From Chiloscyllium plagiosum (taxonomy: Eukaryota), in assembly GCF_004010195.1 (NCBI RefSeq), contig NC_057759.1, positions 7,955,022 to 7,978,478 of the forward strand: 23,457 nt of DNA, written 5' to 3'. Made by a program: the position numbers and the translations under genes. Of the stretch, positions 4,825 to 21,672 are shown piece by piece. The notes below the pieces were generated by a model. The model saw nothing but the letters and a program-made list of their open reading frames with translations, did no database searches and was not told where the DNA came from. The number at the start of each line of letters is the position of its first letter. The first letter of the stretch is position 1.

Positions 4825-5440
4825 TGCTATGGACCAGGCCAGACCCCCTCAAAACATTTCAAGAAGTTAGCCCAGACCCTAACCTTTGTAGTTGTTTTAA
4901 GCAGATGTAAAGTGGATATTCCAGGAGTGACATGGCTGACCCACCCACTCAGTTTTGAATAAAGTAATGTATTTACATATGAATAAAAGAAAACCAAATT
5001 TAGAATAACATAACTATTTGAAAAACCAACCAACATGAGGACAATCTTAATGATACTGTTCTAAGTGCTTACAACATTCCCATAAACACCCCCTTGGCAA
5101 AAAAATAATATCAAACAGGTTCTTACAGGAAAGATGTCAGATAGAGAGAGGATTAACTTGGAACTGCTTCTTTGCGTCCCCTGCAGTTTCTCTGGGTTCC
5201 CAGCTAAAACTTGACCAGCAGCTGCAAACAAAACAACCAGACTGCTAAAACCAAACCAAACCAAATCCTGAACTGGGAGAACTGACCATTCCCCTTTCAT
5301 TGTCCAAGTGTTTTAAAACAAAGACTTAAAAGCATTCTGAAGTAGATAAACCCAGACATATTAGAAACCCTGACTTTATGACTTCTCTGGAAAAACACCC
5401 AGGGACAACAAAACCTTATTAAAGAAGCAGCATCGACACA
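4825..5440. mobile_element. Probable solo LTR (TG...CA)
   Basis: Starts tgctatggaccag and ends gcagcatcgacaca. Flanked by tcag/gcag (imperfect 4-bp TSD). Collinear with 11332-11961. Confidence 0.6.
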
Positions 5441-9526: not shown

Positions 9527-9584
9527 AGGTGAAACTGCATCAGGTGAAACTGCATCAGGTGAAACTGCATCAGGTGAAACTGCA
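9527..9584. repeat. Perfect 15-bp tandem repeat (AGGTGAAACTGCATC) x3 plus 13 nt
   Basis: Directly visible. It produces MQFHL repeats in ORF 9439..9657. Confidence 0.97.
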
Positions 9585-10013: not shown

Positions 10014-10217
10014 AGCAGAAGTAGGTACTGCAGATGCTGGAGATTAGAGTCAAGATTAATGGTGCTGGAAAAGCACAGCAGGTCACTCAGCATCCGAGGA
10101 ACAGGAAAATCGACGTTTCGGGCAAAAGCCATTCATTAGGAATTCCTGTCGATTTTCCTGCTCCTCGGATGCTGCCTGACCTGCTGTGCATTTCCCGCAC
10201 CACTCTAATCTTGACTC
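10014..10217. mobile_element. Palindromic Penelope-like (pseudo-LTR derived) non-autonomous element inserted in the Gypsy
   Basis: Arms 10047-~10114 and ~10148-10217 are reverse complements. Flanked by tcagaggagcct / tcagaggaacct. A degenerate hammerhead motif lies on the minus strand in the loop. Confidence 0.75.
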
Positions 10218-10809
10218 AGAGGAACCTGACATGATGCTAAAACGCCTAAGAAAGCTATCCAAGAGATCTCAGTGAGTCCCTCTCTTGCCCTCCTTGAAGA
10301 AGCTCTCTTCCTCCCTCTACAAAGATCTCAGTGAGTCCCTCTCTCACTGCACCCCCCAGGTTGCCTTCCTATCCAAGAGATAGGACAAGCCTGTGTCCAC
10401 AGACTCTAAGTCAGCTAGCTGGACCTCATGGAATAAGTTCCCGGATTGGGGCTATTAATTAGATCCAATCAGGCAGCTCTGGCTATCAAAAATGTTAAGT
10501 ATTAGAGATACTGACATTTTGGTGGCTGACTCTTTATGATGTTCTAATATGGGTTTTATCTCATCTTCATAAAGTGGAACTTCTCAGTTGCATCTCAACA
10601 ACATGTATTAACAATCTATAAATGATGGTAAGGCTACAAACAGCATGCTCTGCACTGCACAGATTCTAACTTTCTAGAGGAGTACAAACATACGACTACT
10701 GAGATTACAGTTACACCACTGCTTACCACAGAAGCTTGCCATAAAGCCTTACCTTGAAAGATGTGATGAAATTGTTCTTAACTGAGTCGATGTCTAAAGT
10801 AGGACCTGA

Positions 10810-11065
10810 TTAAAGTAATTCCAGAAAGGCCAGTATCCCATCACCAAGTCATCCTTGACTATAGTACTGCCTCACACAGAGCCAACCATCAAAACATCAG
10901 TATCTCTAATACTTAACATTTTTGACAGGCAGAGCTGCCTGACTGGGGCTATTAATCAGATCCAATCAGGAACTTATTCCATGAGGATTGACTAGCTGAC
11001 TTTGCTATAATTACTATATCCCTCCCTCTTGGTCTGTGGACAGTCTCTTGTCCTACCTCTTGGAT
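10810..11065 (-). mobile_element. Gypsy 3' end plus LTR of the same family, inverted
   Basis: The reverse complement reads atccaagaggtaggacaag...gagggaggga (PPT-like), then an LTR matching 10410-10533 and ending like the 5' LTR at 7315-7407. Confidence 0.7.
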
Positions 11066-14219: not shown

Positions 14220-14234
14220 TCCCCTACTCCTTTT

Positions 14235-14540
14235 TAGATTACTTACAGTGTGGAAACAGGCCCTTCGGCCCAACAAGTCCACACCGCCCCGCCGAAGCGC
14301 AACCCACCCATACCCCTACATTTACCCCTTACCTAACACTACGGGCAATTTAGTATGGCCAATTCACCTGACCTGCACATCTTTGGACTGTGGGAGGAAA
14401 CCGGAGCACCCGGAGGAAACCCACGCAGACACGGGGAGAATGTGCAAACTCCACACAGTCAGTCGCCTGAGGCGGGAATTGAACCTGGGTCTCCGGCGCT
14501 GTGAGGCAGCAGTGCTAACCACTGTGCCACCGTGCCGCCC
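14235..14540 (-). mobile_element. HE1-type SINE, young
   Basis: Intact tRNA-like head and CR1-like tail on the minus strand. tcctt on both flanks. Confidence 0.95.
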
Positions 14541-14717: not shown

Positions 14718-15040
14718 AGATTAGATTTTTTTTAGATTAGATTACAGTGTGGAAACAGGCCCTTCGGCCCAACAAGTCCACACCGACCCGCCGAAGCGAA
14801 ACCCACCCATACCCCTACATTTACCCCTTACCTAACACTACGGGCAATTTAGCATGGCCAATTCACCTGACCCTGCACATCTTTGGACTGTGGGAGGAAA
14901 CCGGAGCACCCGGAGGAAACCCACGCAGACACGGGGAGAACGTGCAAACTCCACACAGTCAGTCGCCTGAGGCGGGAATTGAACCCGGGTCTCAAGCGCT
15001 GTGAGGCAGCAGTGCTAACCACTGTGCCACCGTGCCGCCC
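14718..15040 (-). mobile_element. HE1-type SINE, young, inserted in CR1 ORF2
   Basis: Near-identical to 14235-14540. (tagat)n tail. actag on both flanks. Confidence 0.95.
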
Positions 15041-16121
15041 TACTAGCAGCTTAATGTTCCAGGATACAAATGCTATAGGAAGGATAGAAATGGAGGCAAG
15101 AGAGGAGGGGGAGTAGCGTTTTTGATAAGGGATAACATTACGGCTGTACTTAGGGAGGATATTCCTGGGAATACATTCAGGGAAGTTACTTAAGTAGAAC
15201 TGAGAAATAAAAAAAGGATGATCACCTTATTGGGATTGTATATAGACCCCCTAATGGACAGGGGGAAATTGAGAAACAAATTTGTAAGGAAATCTCAGTC
15301 ATCTGTAAGAGTAATAGGTTGGTTATGGGCGGGGATTTTAACTTTCCAAACATAGACTAGGACTACCATAGTGTTAAGGGTTTAGATGGAGAGGAATTTA
15401 AGTGTGTACAAGAAACTTTTTGGATTCAGCATGTGGATGTATCTACTAGAGAAGCTGCAAAACCTGACCTACTCTTGGGATATAAGGCAGGGCAGGTGAC
15501 TGAGGTGTCAGTATGGGAGCACTTGGAGGCCAGTGACCATAATTCTACTGGTTTTAAAATAGTGATGGAAAAAGATAGACCAGATCTAAAAGTTGAAGTC
15601 CTAAGCTGGAGGAAGGTCACTTTTGACGATATTAGACAATAACTTTCAAAAATTGATTGGTGCAGATGTTCGCAGGTAAAGGGACAGATGGAAAATGGGA
15701 AGCCTTCAAAAGTGAGATAATGAGAGCCCTGAGACAGTATATTCCTGTTCAGCTGAAAGGCAAGGCTGGTTGGTGTAGGGAATGCTGGATGATTCGAGAA
15801 ATTGAAGTTTTGGTTAAGAAAAAGAAGGAAGCATATGTCAGGTATAGACAGCAGAGGTTGAGTCAATCTGTAGAAGAGTATAAAGACAGTAGGAGTATCC
15901 ATAAGAGGGAAATCCGGAGGGCAAAAAGGGGACATGAGATAGCTTTGGCAAATAGGGTTAAGGAGAATCTGAAAGGATTTTATAAATATATTAAGGTGAA
16001 AAGGGTAACTAAGGAGAGAACAGGGCCCCTGAAAGACCAGCAAAGCAACCACAGGAGATGAGAGACATACTAAACAAGTATTTTGCATCAGTGTTTACTC
16101 TGGAGAAGGACATGGAAGATA

Positions 16122-16245
16122 TCAGGGGAAATGCAAAGTAATAGGGTAGGGGAATGAATCTGGGTGGGTTACTCTTCAGGCGGTCAGTGTGGACTTGTTG
16201 GGCCATATTCTGTTTCCACACTGTAGGGATTACATGATTCTATGA
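16122..16245 (+). mobile_element. 5'-truncated HE1-type SINE 3' end inserted in the CR1
   Basis: ctgggtgggttactcttcaggcggtcagtgtggacttgttgggcc...tgtttccacactgtagggatt...ctatgat. gatat on both flanks. Confidence 0.75.
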
Positions 16246-18057
16246 TATAGAATGTGGGAAATGGATGATATCTTGGAAAAATGTCCATATTACAGAGATG
16301 GTGGTGATGGATGTCTTGAAATGCATAAAGATGGTTGGATACCCAAGACTTGATCAAGTGTGCCCTGGAACTCTCTGGTGGCTGGGGGTGATTGCTCGGA
16401 CCCTTGCTGGGATATTTGTATCATCGATAGTCTTGGTTGAGGTGTCGGAAGACTGGAGGTTGGCTGGCATGGTGCTGTTACTTAAGAAGGGTGGTAAGGA
16501 AAAATTAAGGAACTACAGACCGGTGAGCCTGACATCGGTGGTGGGGAAGTTGTTGGAGAGAATCCTGAGGGACAGGATTTACATGCATTTGGAAAGGCCA
16601 GGACTGATTAGGGATAGTCAGCATGGCTTTGTGCGTGGGAAATCATGTTTCACAAACTTGATGGAGTTTTTTGAAGAAGTAACAAAGAGGATTGATAAGG
16701 GCACAGCAGTGAACGTGACCTATGTGGACTTCAGTCAGGCATTCGACAAGGCTTCTCATGGTAGACTGGTTAGCAAGGTTTGATCTCATGGGATAGATGG
16801 AGAATTAGCCATTTGATACAGCACTGGATTGAAGATAAAAGGCAGAGGGTAGTAGTGGAAGGTTGCTTTTCAGATTGGAGGCCTGTGACCAGTCGTGTGC
16901 CACTGGGATCGGTGCTGAGTTCGCTGCTTTTCGTCATTTATATAAATGATTTGGATATGAACATAGGAGGTATAGTTAGTAAGTTTGCAGATGACACCAA
17001 AATTGGAGGTGTAGCGGACAGCGAAGAAGGTTACCTCAGATTATAATGGGATCTTGATCAGATGGGCCAAGGGGCTGAGGAGTGGCAGATGGAGTTCAAA
17101 TTGGATAAATGTGAAGTACTGCATTTTGGAAAGACAAATCATGACAGGGTTTATACACTTGATGGTAAGGGACTGTTGCTGAACAAAGAGACCTTGGAAT
17201 GCAGGTTCATTGTTCCTTAAAAGTGGAGTTACATATAGATAGGATAGTGAAGATGATGTTTGGTATGCTTTCCTATATTGAACAGAGCATTAAGTATAGA
17301 AGTCGGGAGGTCATGTTGTGGCTGTACAGGACATTGGTTAGGCCATTTTTGGAATATGGAATGCAATTCTATGATCCCTGCTATAGAAAGGATGTTGTGA
17401 AACTTGAAAAGGTTCAGAAAGATTTACAGGGTTGGAGGATTTGAGCTATAGGGAGAGAGTGGGGCTGTTTTCCCTGGAGCGTCGGACGCTGAGGGGTGAC
17501 CTTATAGAGGTTTATAAAATAATGAGGGTCATGGATAGGTAAATAGCCAAGGTCTTTCCCTGGGATGGGGGAGTCCAGAACAAGAGGGCATAGGTTTAGG
17601 GTGAGAGGGGAAAAATGTAAAAGTGACCTAAGTGGCAACCTTTTTCATGCAGAGGGTGGTGCATGTATGAAATGAGCTGCCAGAGGAACTACAACATTTA
17701 AAATACATCTGGATGGGTATATGAAGAGGAAGGGATTAGAGAATATGAGCCACATGCTGGCAAATGGGACTAGATTAGATGTGGATATCTGGCTGACATA
17801 GATGAGTTGGCCTGAACGGTCTGTTTCCGTGCTGTGTGTCTCTATGATTCTGGAGAACAAAGTTAGAAGAGGCTTATTGATGTTTTGTTTCAACTGACTG
17901 AGTGAGATGTTCCTGCTCCAAATCAGATAGCAGCCTTCTCAATGCTGAGGTCAGATTTGGTTGAAGAAGTTTGGGTTGCAACAGAAGACTGTTGGAATGT
18001 TTTTTTGTAAAAGTCATGAACCTTCTCACAATTTATTTGTCACATGTTGCCAATTGA

Positions 18058-18219
18058 AAAAGAACAACCTTAGTTACCCGAATGTCAATTATCCGAAGTT
18101 CAGATTATCTGAACAAGATCTCAAGCTCCCGTAAAAACATTGTCTGATATCCAAACAATTGGTTATCCAAACAGCATACTCCCCACTGGTCTCATTCGGA
18201 TGATCAAGGTTGCTCTGTA
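18058..18219. mobile_element. pogo/Tigger-like MITE
   Basis: Imperfect TIRs agaacaaccttagttacccgaat ... attcggatgatcaaggttgctctg followed by TA, with internal attatccgaa-like subrepeats. Confidence 0.6.
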
Positions 18220-18268
18220 TTCCATTCATCAACATTTTCAAACCTGATGTTTTTCTAATATCTTTTAG

Positions 18269-18389
18269 GTATCAGCCAAGTAAAACACTTGCAGAAATAT
18301 ATCGTTGTGTTTACAAAGTTCGTAACAAACTGCTAGCATGCAAAAACCTGGAACTTATCCAGACCCAGTCACTTTCCAGTGAAAGGAGA
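18269..18389 (+). CDS. HERC1: HERC1 internal coding exon (R)YQPSKTLAEIYRCVYKVRNKLLACKNLELIQTQSLSSERR
   Basis: Acceptor tcttttAG at 18267-18268 and donor gtaagt at 18390. Its first G completes the AG|G Arg codon of the upstream exon. Matches recalled human HERC1 YQPGKHLSEVYRCVYKVRSRLLACKNLELIQT. Confidence 0.95.
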
Positions 18390-18464
18390 GTAAGTTCTTG
18401 AAATAACTTTTTAAAAATATAAATAATTTAAATGTAACTGAGTTAGACCATTCAAATATTCTTG

Positions 18465-19198
18465 ACAATGTTACATGAGTAAAATGCAATAATGTTCTGT
18501 AAAGCATGGATTATTGCTTTTGCTGGAACTCATACTGCTGTCTGTCCTTATGGACAAATGTATTTGCAACAAGGCCTGTCAGACAGCTCTCCCAATTTTA
18601 ATGAGTACCCAGATTTTAGTAAATTTGACTTTGCAAGATCAAGGGCTGGGATTGCTGTCGAAACTCGTGGTGGCATCTGTGGAGAGAAAGCGGAGTTAAC
18701 ATTTTGAGTCTGGTGACCTTTCTCGAGGACATAGTTTTTGTTTCAGATTTCCAGCATTTTCACTTCTTTGTTTTATTTTTGTATGGCTGTTGTTCTCATT
18801 GCTGAGGTTAATACCAGGTGGTTCATCTGGGTTCAGATGAACCACCTGGTATTAACCTCAGCAATGAGAACAACAGCCATACAAAAATAAAACAAAGAAG
18901 TGAAAATGCTGGAAATCTGAAACAAAAACTATGTCCTCGAGAAAGGTCACCAGACTCAAAATGTTAACTCCGCTTTCTCTCCACAGATGCCACCACGAGT
19001 TTCGACAGCAATCCCAGCCCTTGATCTTGCAAAGTCAAATTTACTAAAATCTGGGTACTCATTAAAATTGGGAGAGCTGTCTGACAGGCCTTGTTGCAAA
19101 TACATTTGTCCATAAGGACAGACAGCAGTATGAGTTCCAGCAAAAGCAATAATCCATGCTTTACAGAACATTATTGCATTTTACTCATGTAACATTGT
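18465..19198. repeat. Long inverted repeat, 365-bp arms with a 4-nt spacer
   Basis: 18465-18829 is the reverse complement of 18834-19198. Identical mirror ORFs 18492..18707(+) and 18956..19171(-). Confidence 0.98.
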
Positions 19199-19527
19199 GT
19201 TCTTCATGCTTGAAAAATGTGTTTTGAAGATGAAAAGCCAAGGATGTAACAAATCCCTCTGTGTTGTGTGTAGTCTTTAAATGAAAAATGATCCATTACG
19301 TATATTTTTTGTTTGATTCCATCAGTCTCTGCCTGTTCAAGTTGTTAGTCTTGAGGAATAACTGTTCATCAATTTCAGTTTTGAATCTTTTTTTTTAGCC
19401 AGCCCACAAAATGGGTATAGTAATCTTTTCTAAAGGAAAGATAAAGTATTGATTTCTCAAATAAATAATGCAAAATACCACAACATTTTAAAAAAAAAGT
19501 TTTACTTTACCTTCCCTTTTTCACAAG

Positions 19528-19693
19528 TTGTCAGAAAATCAAGACACGACAGATGTTGATCTTCAAGAGCTTTCTTTCACTCGTACCATTGATGAAGAAG
19601 CTGAAATGGAAGAGCAGGCATATCGAGACCGTGAAGATGAGCATCTGGAACAAGAGGAGGAAGAAAGGGAGCAAGAAGTCATGACTGCTGGAA
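19528..19693 (+). CDS. HERC1: HERC1 internal coding exon LSENQDTTDVDLQELSFTRTIDEEAEMEEQAYRDREDEHLEQEEEEREQEVMTAG (acidic region)
   Basis: Long pyrimidine tract, acceptor cacaAG at 19526-19527 and donor gtaagt at 19694. In phase 0 with the previous exon. Matches recalled human ISENQDSADVDPQEHSFTRTIDEEAEMEEQ...EVMTAG. Not in the ORF track. Confidence 0.95.
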
Positions 19694-20325: not shown

Positions 20326-21344
20326 GGAAAATTAATAATTTACAAAACTCAAACTAAATTATCTGTCCAAATCTACCAGCTGCTGTTAGCAATGGTCATC
20401 TCCAAAAAGCAGCAACAAACCTGGAGGTGACGATTAACCAACTTTTTGGATTTAGTTGAAGATTGTTTTGGTAGTTGTATAGCTAAATTAACCAGATCAA
20501 CATTAAAGATAGCTGTAATATTATTCTTTTGGTGTAAACTGTTGTTGGTCCTAATTAGTGCAAATGATTTTCACCGATGGTGGTTGTACTATTGATGCAA
20601 CAATTCCAAACAACACTGCTAAAGTTTGCCTTGCATTCTTGAAATAGTATGTCTTTTATACCTTGTGGACTTAACTGTTTCCTCAGCCTTTTGCTAGATT
20701 CCTATGTGTTATTTTCTTTTTGAGGGTTGTATCAAAGTGTGCCAATTTCTCAAGCAGATAAGCTGTTAATACTGTGAAATAGCCAGAAAATCTTGTGGAT
20801 GCTGCTTTTAGTCAGATGGGAAAAAAAATACCATAAAGGGATTTAGCCTTTTATGATTTTCTTCAGTTTGAAAATTGGACTTTCAGTCAGACATTCAGAA
20901 TATCTCTATTTGAAGAATTTAAAATAATCCATCATTTTATTTTTTAACCATTTCTATTGGTGTAGTTGAAGAGATTTATGTCCATATTTTTGCAAGGTGA
21001 GTTTTTTGGCTGCTAAATGTTAACACTATTTCAGGATGTTGCATTATTAGTTTGCATATTGTATAACATGCTGTTTGCTTTAGGAAAAGAATGAATATTA
21101 AATCTAAAGCAGTGCATCCTGCATTGGAACAACTGTTCGAGTAGAGGAGTTGCTAGGATTTGGAATGCGTTGGTTTGGAGTGTGGTGGAAGTGGATTCCA
21201 TAAGAGGATTCAAAAGACAGCTGGATATGTATTTGAAAGTGATAAATTTTGAGGATGATGGAGATAAGGCTGGAGAATGAGACTAGCTGGGTAGCTTTCT
21301 CAGGAACTGGTACAGACACAATGAATCTGATGGCCTTCTTGTGA

Positions 21345-21672
21345 GCGGCACGGTGGCACAGTGGTTAGCACTGCTGCCTCACAGCGCCAGAGACCCGGGT
21401 TCAATTCCCACCTCAGGCGACTGACTGTGTGGAGTTTGCATGTTCTCCGTGTGTCTGCGTGGGTTTCCTCCGGGTGCTCCGGTTTCCTCCCACAGTCCAA
21501 AGATGTGCAGGTAAGATGAATTGGCCATGCTAAATTGCTCGTAGTGTTAGGTAAGGGGTAAATGTAGGGGTATGGGTGGGTTGCGCTTCGGGTCGGTGTG
21601 GACTTGTTGGGCCGAAGGGCCTGTTTCCACACTGTAATGTAATCTAATGTAAAAAGAAAATCTAATCTAATC
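21345..21672 (+). mobile_element. HE1-type SINE, young, inserted in an old LINE 3' fragment (about 21140-21700)
   Basis: Pol III A box tggcacagtgg (21354-21364), B box ggttcaattcc (21398-21408), CR1-like tail and (aatct)n end. Confidence 0.95.

Follow-up and report, generated by a model that had tools for sequence, protein, structure and literature searches.

Long perfect palindromes are thought to be quickly purged. A 15.4-kb palindrome in a mouse transgene was rearranged in about 35% of the offspring, and hairpins can make plain PCR fail (PMC8701086). Among human palindromes with a spacer of up to 8 nt, perfect arms reach at most 140 bp (PMC13155455). PATRR11, PATRR17 and PATRR22 are described as intronic, near-spacerless palindromes, PATRR17 being located in an NF1 intron and PATRR22 having a size of about 600 bp (PMC1851657, PMC7999016); for PATRR22, a short spacer is reported to greatly lower extrusion (PMC1851657).

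In snap-back SD-MMEJ, a 3' end primes on a tiny nearby inverted repeat, copies its own strand and rejoins the other side, the insert turning into a longer inverted repeat; primer repeats of 3-4 nt less than 10 nt apart are preferred, 1-2 nt being used as well, and the synthesis is described as limited (PMC5728401). Four-point template switches in great apes yield a local reverse-complement tract, a perfect inverted repeat and a net gain, with a median tract of 12 nt and a reported hominid maximum of 128 bp in the gold-standard set, the ancestral state being taken from alignments (PMC7954356). Human fold-back inverted duplications show an inverted microhomology of 2-8 bp with a single-copy spacer forming the loop, spacers of 766-70,466 bp, megabase arms and a terminal deletion following a dicentric stage (PMC3907307). 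Penelope-like fold-back units are near-spacerless palindromes carrying pLTR ends, a tail and a target-site duplication of 8-10 bp (PMC3846280).

Here we analyse a palindrome in a HERC1 intron of the shark Chiloscyllium plagiosum. It is like the PATRRs in being intronic, near-spacerless and of similar size, but its arms have a GC content of 39%, i.e. they are not AT-rich, they are built of decayed LINE DNA and no translocation is known. With snap-back SD-MMEJ it appears to share the priming on a tiny inverted repeat, the copying of the own strand and the rejoining of the other side, whereas the presumed copy comprises 363 nt and the microhomology at the return is at most 1 nt. The perfect inverted repeat and net gain seen in great-ape switches are found here with a far longer tract, and the ancestral state is deduced from an old LINE instead of alignments. 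In contrast to the human fold-backs, the spacer has 4 nt and the arms 365 bp, and the structure is interstitial with the gene order intact. Near-spacerless Penelope-like units are abundant in this genome, but the arms described here have no pLTR ends, tail or 8-10-bp target-site duplication, and the Penelope-type piece they contain is an old passenger in mid-arm. The kind of scar is already known; its size is unusual, the arm being 2.6 times as long as the longest perfect human arm. A literature search joining shark, HERC1 and palindrome returned no paper.

Results

The window, i.e. the whole stretch of DNA that was analysed, comprises 23,457 nucleotides (7,955,022-7,978,478 of the assembly scaffold), contains no N and holds the single locus of the palindrome. 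Some 100 kb separate it from the end of the 8.08-Mb scaffold, and an N gap of 1885 adjoins its end. Computed pairing of the assembled sequence shows the arms to be complementary at 365 of 365 positions (100%), separated by the 4-nt spacer GGTT (18830-18833) and giving a palindrome of 734 bases in total, which confirms what a sequence-only reading had recognised by eye. The abrupt end of the symmetry described there is also found, as pairing is lost at 18464/19199 and at six further positions outward. Other exact arms of at least 10 nt with a spacer below 30 nt were found nowhere else in the window. The left arm has a GC content of 39% compared to 38.5% for unique intron DNA, and the central 10 bases of the palindrome have 60%. 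The features of the locus are compiled in Table 1.

Table 1. Features of the palindrome and of the intron harbouring it (window positions)
Feature	Position	Strand	Remarks
Upstream HERC1 exon	18269-18389	+	translation matches HERC1-named proteins at 72-74%; exon order collinear in tblastn
Host intron	18390-19527	+	1138 nt; GT at 18390, AG at 19526-19527
TTCTT	18459-18463	+	repeated at 19200-19204; resembles a target-site duplication, one base off each end
Left arm	18465-18829	+	365 nt; presumed original DNA (LINE through the spacer, T-skew)
Decayed LINE, outer piece	18576-18648	-	APE-endonuclease type; about 70-79% to other copies
Penelope-type stub (presumed)	~18650-18783		splits the LINE remnant; longest matches at 72-80%
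Decayed LINE, inner piece	18785-18835	-	continues through the spacer (BLAST ends, agreement per position)
Centre CTG-GGTT-CAG	18827-18836	+	spacer with putative pre-existing priming stem of 2-3 bp
Right arm	18834-19198	+	18836-19198 (363 nt) presumed templated inverted copy
Start of right flank	19199-19214	+	possibly direct LINE continuation after 18835; weak
Downstream HERC1 exon	19528-19693	+	tblastn with two protein queries

The assignment to a HERC1 intron made by the sequence-only reading holds, considering the GT/AG bounds, the HERC1-named matches and the collinear exons. HERC1-named proteins account for three matches among the eight candidates for the upstream exon, and one of these proteins gives 21 tblastn stretches on the plus strand up to this exon. 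Two more HERC1-named proteins reach past the palindrome into the following exons, the exons being collinear on the plus strand at both sides. The palindrome begins 75 nt past the donor and ends 329 nt ahead of the acceptor; lacking the 363-nt copy, the intron would measure 775 nt.

The arm had been described as ordinary intron sequence including an old Penelope fragment. The Penelope piece stands, 18650-18783 being a stub that we take to be of Penelope type, whereas plain intron has to be replaced by mostly decayed LINE. We retrieved 25 LINE copies for comparison. Following the 81% matches led to an old repeat collinear with 18576-18648 and approximately 18770-18835, and a weaker LINE match may extend the outer piece to about 18535. 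Among eight long frames of the LINE family tested, Exo_endo_phos_2 was above the cut-off in three and RVT_1 was present in one below the cut-off, all of these matches being located on the strand opposite to the left arm. Judged by these matches, the interrupted old repeat is a non-LTR LINE, presumably CR1/L2-like, and the arm is composed mostly of decayed LINE with a Penelope-type interruption, which is new here. Repeat matches are confined in our sample to 18668-18783 and its mirror image, with none at the centre or at the outer ends where pLTR arms of a Penelope-like unit would be placed; instead of a duplication of about 8-10 bp, only the five bases TTCTT are repeated, at a distance of one base from either end. 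The repeats in the arm are 20-30% diverged from their relatives and the two arms are identical to each other, suggesting the duplication to be much younger than its contents and the palindrome to be of recent age.

Searching the assembly with the whole region gave one full match and short matches to old repeats (best 40 of 882 candidates). The outer 176 nt of the arm match the two arms at 100% and three old partial copies at 81-82% (all five candidates), the inner 90 nt match the two arms and the tail of the Penelope-type stub, nothing more (19 of 19 candidates scored), and the right flank matches itself alone (the one candidate scored). These searches of the assembly found no second high-identity copy, donor or alternative allele. 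Within the limits of the searches, one full locus with old partial matches only argues against a transposon family. A TIR transposon, MITE or foldback element is rejected on account of the single locus and the lack of a terminal-repeat family in these searches, in accordance with the sequence-only reading, which had rejected a TIR transposon.

The direction of copying can be read from the LINE. By BLAST, six of the 25 LINE copies match the inner arm and four of these end at 18835. For comparison per position, three of the 25 copies were dropped as they gave no anchor; the window agrees with most of the remaining 22 at 19 of the 22 positions from 18814 to 18835, where, the anchor being 18813-18833, evidence free of the anchor comes from 18834-18835 and the BLAST ends. 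At 18834 and 18835, 82% and 86% of the 22 copies agree. From 18836 on, agreement with most copies drops to 4 of 17 positions. In left-arm orientation, LINE homology is continuous across the spacer up to 18835, so that left arm and spacer would be original and 18836-19198 the copy. T-skew speaks weakly for a native left arm (ratio 4.8; 73 intron chunks) and G-skew is uninformative (ratio 1.2). With 18834-18835 native, the original DNA would have held a 2-bp stem around GGTT, or 3 bp if G18836 is native too. This stem may have primed the copying; its computed energy in CTG-GGTT-CAG is -0.2 kcal/mol. We also considered the right arm as the original, with a 2-nt TG microhomology, which we reject on the basis of LINE agreement, BLAST ends and T-skew. 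A junction by duplication of the 4-nt GTTC (18831-18834/19199-19202) was dropped as the LINE copies show 18835 to be native, and a heterozygous inversion could, by reasoning only, not yield the centre junction.

At the return junction, the microhomology is at most 1 nt. The LINE continuation past 18835 fits the right flank best at offset 0 among 40 offsets, with five of the first six bases and 5.0 bits (reached in 3.0% of 20,000 null draws and, gapped, in 2.9% of 1,500), a score equalled at 13 of the 291 other start positions along that flank. Agreement is lost within about 15 nt, and a search of 17001-19527 gave no later stretch of LINE continuation. A clean insertion of 363 nt into an intron of 775 nt is weakly indicated. 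About equally likely is that a native stretch was replaced, which would also leave a LINE match ending within about 15 nt of the centre. The sequence-only reading had seen no target-site duplication. A TTCTT is in fact found on both sides (18459-18463 and 19200-19204), the chance of such a repeat flanking the palindrome being about 1.5%, but it is probably not a target-site duplication. The same five bases serve both the LINE-continuation match and this repeat, and one of the two matches is due to chance. The six bases outside the arms (TTCTTG at 18459-18464 and GTTCTT at 19199-19204) mirror each other without being complementary, for which pairing offers no explanation and which is probably fortuitous; a third GTTCTT is located at 18394-18399.

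We compared the locus with the fold-back background of the assembly, sampling 800 kb (29,262 N in 28 N runs) plus the window. Besides the palindrome, about 0.8 Mb contains 41 inverted repeats at close spacing whose arms measure at least 60 nt and are 68-99.5% identical, 38 of these being repeat-derived and many having spacers of 1-5 nt; none of the 41 has arms of at least 150 nt at an identity of at least 90%. The span of 68-99.5% identity indicates that the assembly does carry natural hairpins. Outside the window, 852,202 non-N bases, or 0.02% of the genome, were scanned for exact arms; 81,464 of them belonged to unplaced contigs. This gave six perfect arms of 38-103 nt, five repeat-derived and the sixth alike by its letters, and no comparable palindrome. 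Hairpins of a range of ages are common here, and the palindrome in the HERC1 intron is an outlier in length and content. Four perfect palindromes of the 852-kb sample (L083 5366-5572, L091 8300-8410, L032+033 10954-11034 and right neighbour 72469-72622) combine arms of 38-103 nt with only 1-5 nt of spacer and are all repeat-derived; if the sample is typical, the density of perfect palindromes would be far above human reports. The fold-back at L034 2747-3372, which is old and repeat-derived, has arms of about 313 nt that are 80% identical, suggesting that hairpins of such length can survive here while they decay. Three old inverted repeats of 68-76% identity without repeat matches in the sample (L044+045 14991-15331, L071 8482-8855 and L038+039 5217-5410) may be older cases of such an event.

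We searched 117 words from the locus in the sequencing runs, 24 of which were listed. Two samples of one study hold the highest shares among these, i.e. 0.91 and 0.85, and one of the two might be the source of the assembly. These values exceed the ceiling for an arm-less allele (0.50-0.64), showing that arm DNA is present in both samples; as they are below the ceiling for a one-arm allele (0.95-0.96), they fit one arm as well as two and do not demonstrate the palindrome. Four runs from three samples labelled as the same organism have shares of 0.40-0.41, values compatible with a diverged lineage, a mislabel or an arm-less allele, and a second organism label has 0.33, which likewise fits divergence as well as an arm-less allele. 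Six runs at 0.12-0.17 and two at 0.00 were left out as evidence, and no RNA run among the 24 listed held words of the locus.

The predicted fold of the intron (-759 kcal/mol) contains a 365-bp duplex, and a pre-mRNA hairpin of this length is predicted to leave both splice sites free outside. A crude splice scan by consensus count gave a single acceptor-like site for the right arm, at 18985 inside the predicted duplex, and no donor-like site for this arm. Rfam returned 21 generic hairpin matches, none at the gathering threshold. We see no sign of a function for the palindrome, and the 41 other fold-backs in about 0.8 Mb make a dedicated role for this hairpin unlikely. On the DNA level, we predict that the allele readily loses its centre by deletion, a tendency which the spacer of 4 nt and the GC content of 60% in the central 10 bases may dampen; we expect this allele to be short-lived and probably polymorphic.

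Discussion

Our data favour, with a probability of roughly 0.6, the palindrome being a real, recent and functionless scar of repair or replication created by snap-back copying; that the palindrome, observed here in assembled sequence, is real we regard as quite probable. In the proposed model, a break with resection or a stalled fork would expose a top-strand 3' end at 18835-18836, which would pair back on the 2-3-bp stem around GGTT, be extended along its own strand by about 363 bases as far as 18465, unwind and rejoin the downstream intron at 19199 with little or no loss, making the return nearly clean. Going by known pathways, this could have happened by snap-back SD-MMEJ, polymerase-theta-like, for which templated insertions were reportedly described by Khodaverdian et al. 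in 2017, or by a four-point template switch. The sequence-only reading had put a fold-back or template-switch duplication next to an artefact; its fold-back reading is carried further here by a direction of copying and a candidate priming stem. The insert is the reverse complement of directly adjacent DNA (365/365) with no donor elsewhere, and the spacer, with the LINE running to 18835, appears as original single-copy DNA holding a short inverted repeat beforehand. It counts against snap-back copying that 363 nt are far beyond the hominid maximum of 128 nt, that synthesis in SD-MMEJ is described as limited, that 852 kb gave no similar case and that the return shows at most 1 nt of microhomology.

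An assembly or library artefact, in which, owing to a fold-back chimera or to a gap filled wrongly, the reverse complement of the left arm came to stand in place of or ahead of the true downstream sequence, is unlikely but deserves serious attention. The 3.56-Gb assembly is fragmented (101,977 contigs; 28 N runs with 29,262 N in the 800 kb), an N gap begins directly after the window, no listed run exceeds 0.91 of the words, LINE homology ends at about the centre and the arms are 100% identical at a length well above the human maximum of 140 bp (PMC13155455). Exactly 100% identity could be the assembler's doing even with a real repeat. Against an artefact, the nearest gap is 4.3 kb from the palindrome, and the offset-0 LINE continuation, weak as it is, leaves no missing stretch to fill. 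A common fault of the assembly is disfavoured, as perfect arms elsewhere in the 852 kb sampled, 81 kb of which came from unplaced contigs, do not exceed 103 bp. Two false junctions would have to beat one true junction in low-copy DNA; the need for two separate junctions, the intact exon order and the low-copy DNA favour a real structure. On artefacts of this type, literature searches gave nothing pertinent by title or start of abstract.

Among readings of a real structure, a retroelement might have made it locally, an abortive Penelope-type nick providing a 3' end to be extended by reverse transcriptase, either along that DNA strand or along HERC1 pre-mRNA, with no sequence of the element itself remaining. 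Penelope elements are described to self-prime into palindromic junctions (PMC3846280), and 38 of the 41 other sampled fold-backs derive from repeats, many with only 1-5 nt between the arms. The copy runs antisense to the transcript from the 3' end on, which gives it the polarity of a cDNA. Yet there is no young Penelope sequence, tail or 8-10-bp target-site duplication at the centre or the ends, the copy stops in mid-intron at no RNA landmark and nothing tells an RNA template from a DNA template, making this origin very unlikely. Even less probable is the arrival of the whole 736 nt from elsewhere, folded back on arrival and flanked by TTCTT as target-site duplication. The repeat at both sides (chance 1.5%) and the word shares of 0.40-0.41, nearer to the arm-less ceiling of 0.50-0.64, would fit, but our searches of the assembly gave no donor copy, the TTCTT copies are each separated from the arm by one base and the same five bases are explained as LINE continuation, and a share of 0.40 is below the arm-less ceiling, so that those samples are diverged anyway. 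We give hardly any credence to a selected regulatory hairpin in HERC1 acting as editing substrate, source of endo-siRNA or splicing aid. The predicted perfect 365-bp duplex would bring the splice sites to about 404 nt from each other, but it is built of decayed repeats, its 100% identity allows no compensatory changes, Rfam yields only generic microRNA-hairpin matches below the gathering score, and shorter but similar hairpins are everywhere in this genome.

If the palindrome is real and inherited, it would be one of the rare cases in nature in which a long snap-back insertion, our preferred reading, is still fresh enough for the priming stem to be recognised, and the locus would lend itself to studies in a shark of how palindromes decay and how intronic dsRNA is edited. 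That a real palindrome of PATRR size, perfect, not AT-rich and made of host DNA, is inherited intact in several animals within a transcribed intron of a hairpin-strewn genome is doubtful and distinctly improbable. If true, it would be an element-free product of the fold-back chemistry that builds Penelope stubs and a natural test of differences between vertebrates in removing long palindromes. As an artefact, it would caution against errors of the fold-back type where assemblies are fragmented. Taken alone, one locus with no demonstrated function changes no model.

Apart from the palindrome, the window contains further repeats. A Penelope-type fold-back stub with arms of about 85 nt is located at 10047-10217, and a perfect 15-nt tandem repeat of about four copies at 9527-9584. 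Old long repeats form an inverted pair (89-1212 and 15248-16549; about 80-87% alike, 14-16 kb apart), a second inverted pair being present at 10441-10550 and 10861-10970 (78%). Three young SINE copies (14231-14540, 14729-15040 and 21342-21647) share about 95-98% of their sequence; a distance of 500 nt separates two of them, and the third, 6.3-6.8 kb off, is inverted and could pair with the other two in the pre-mRNA.
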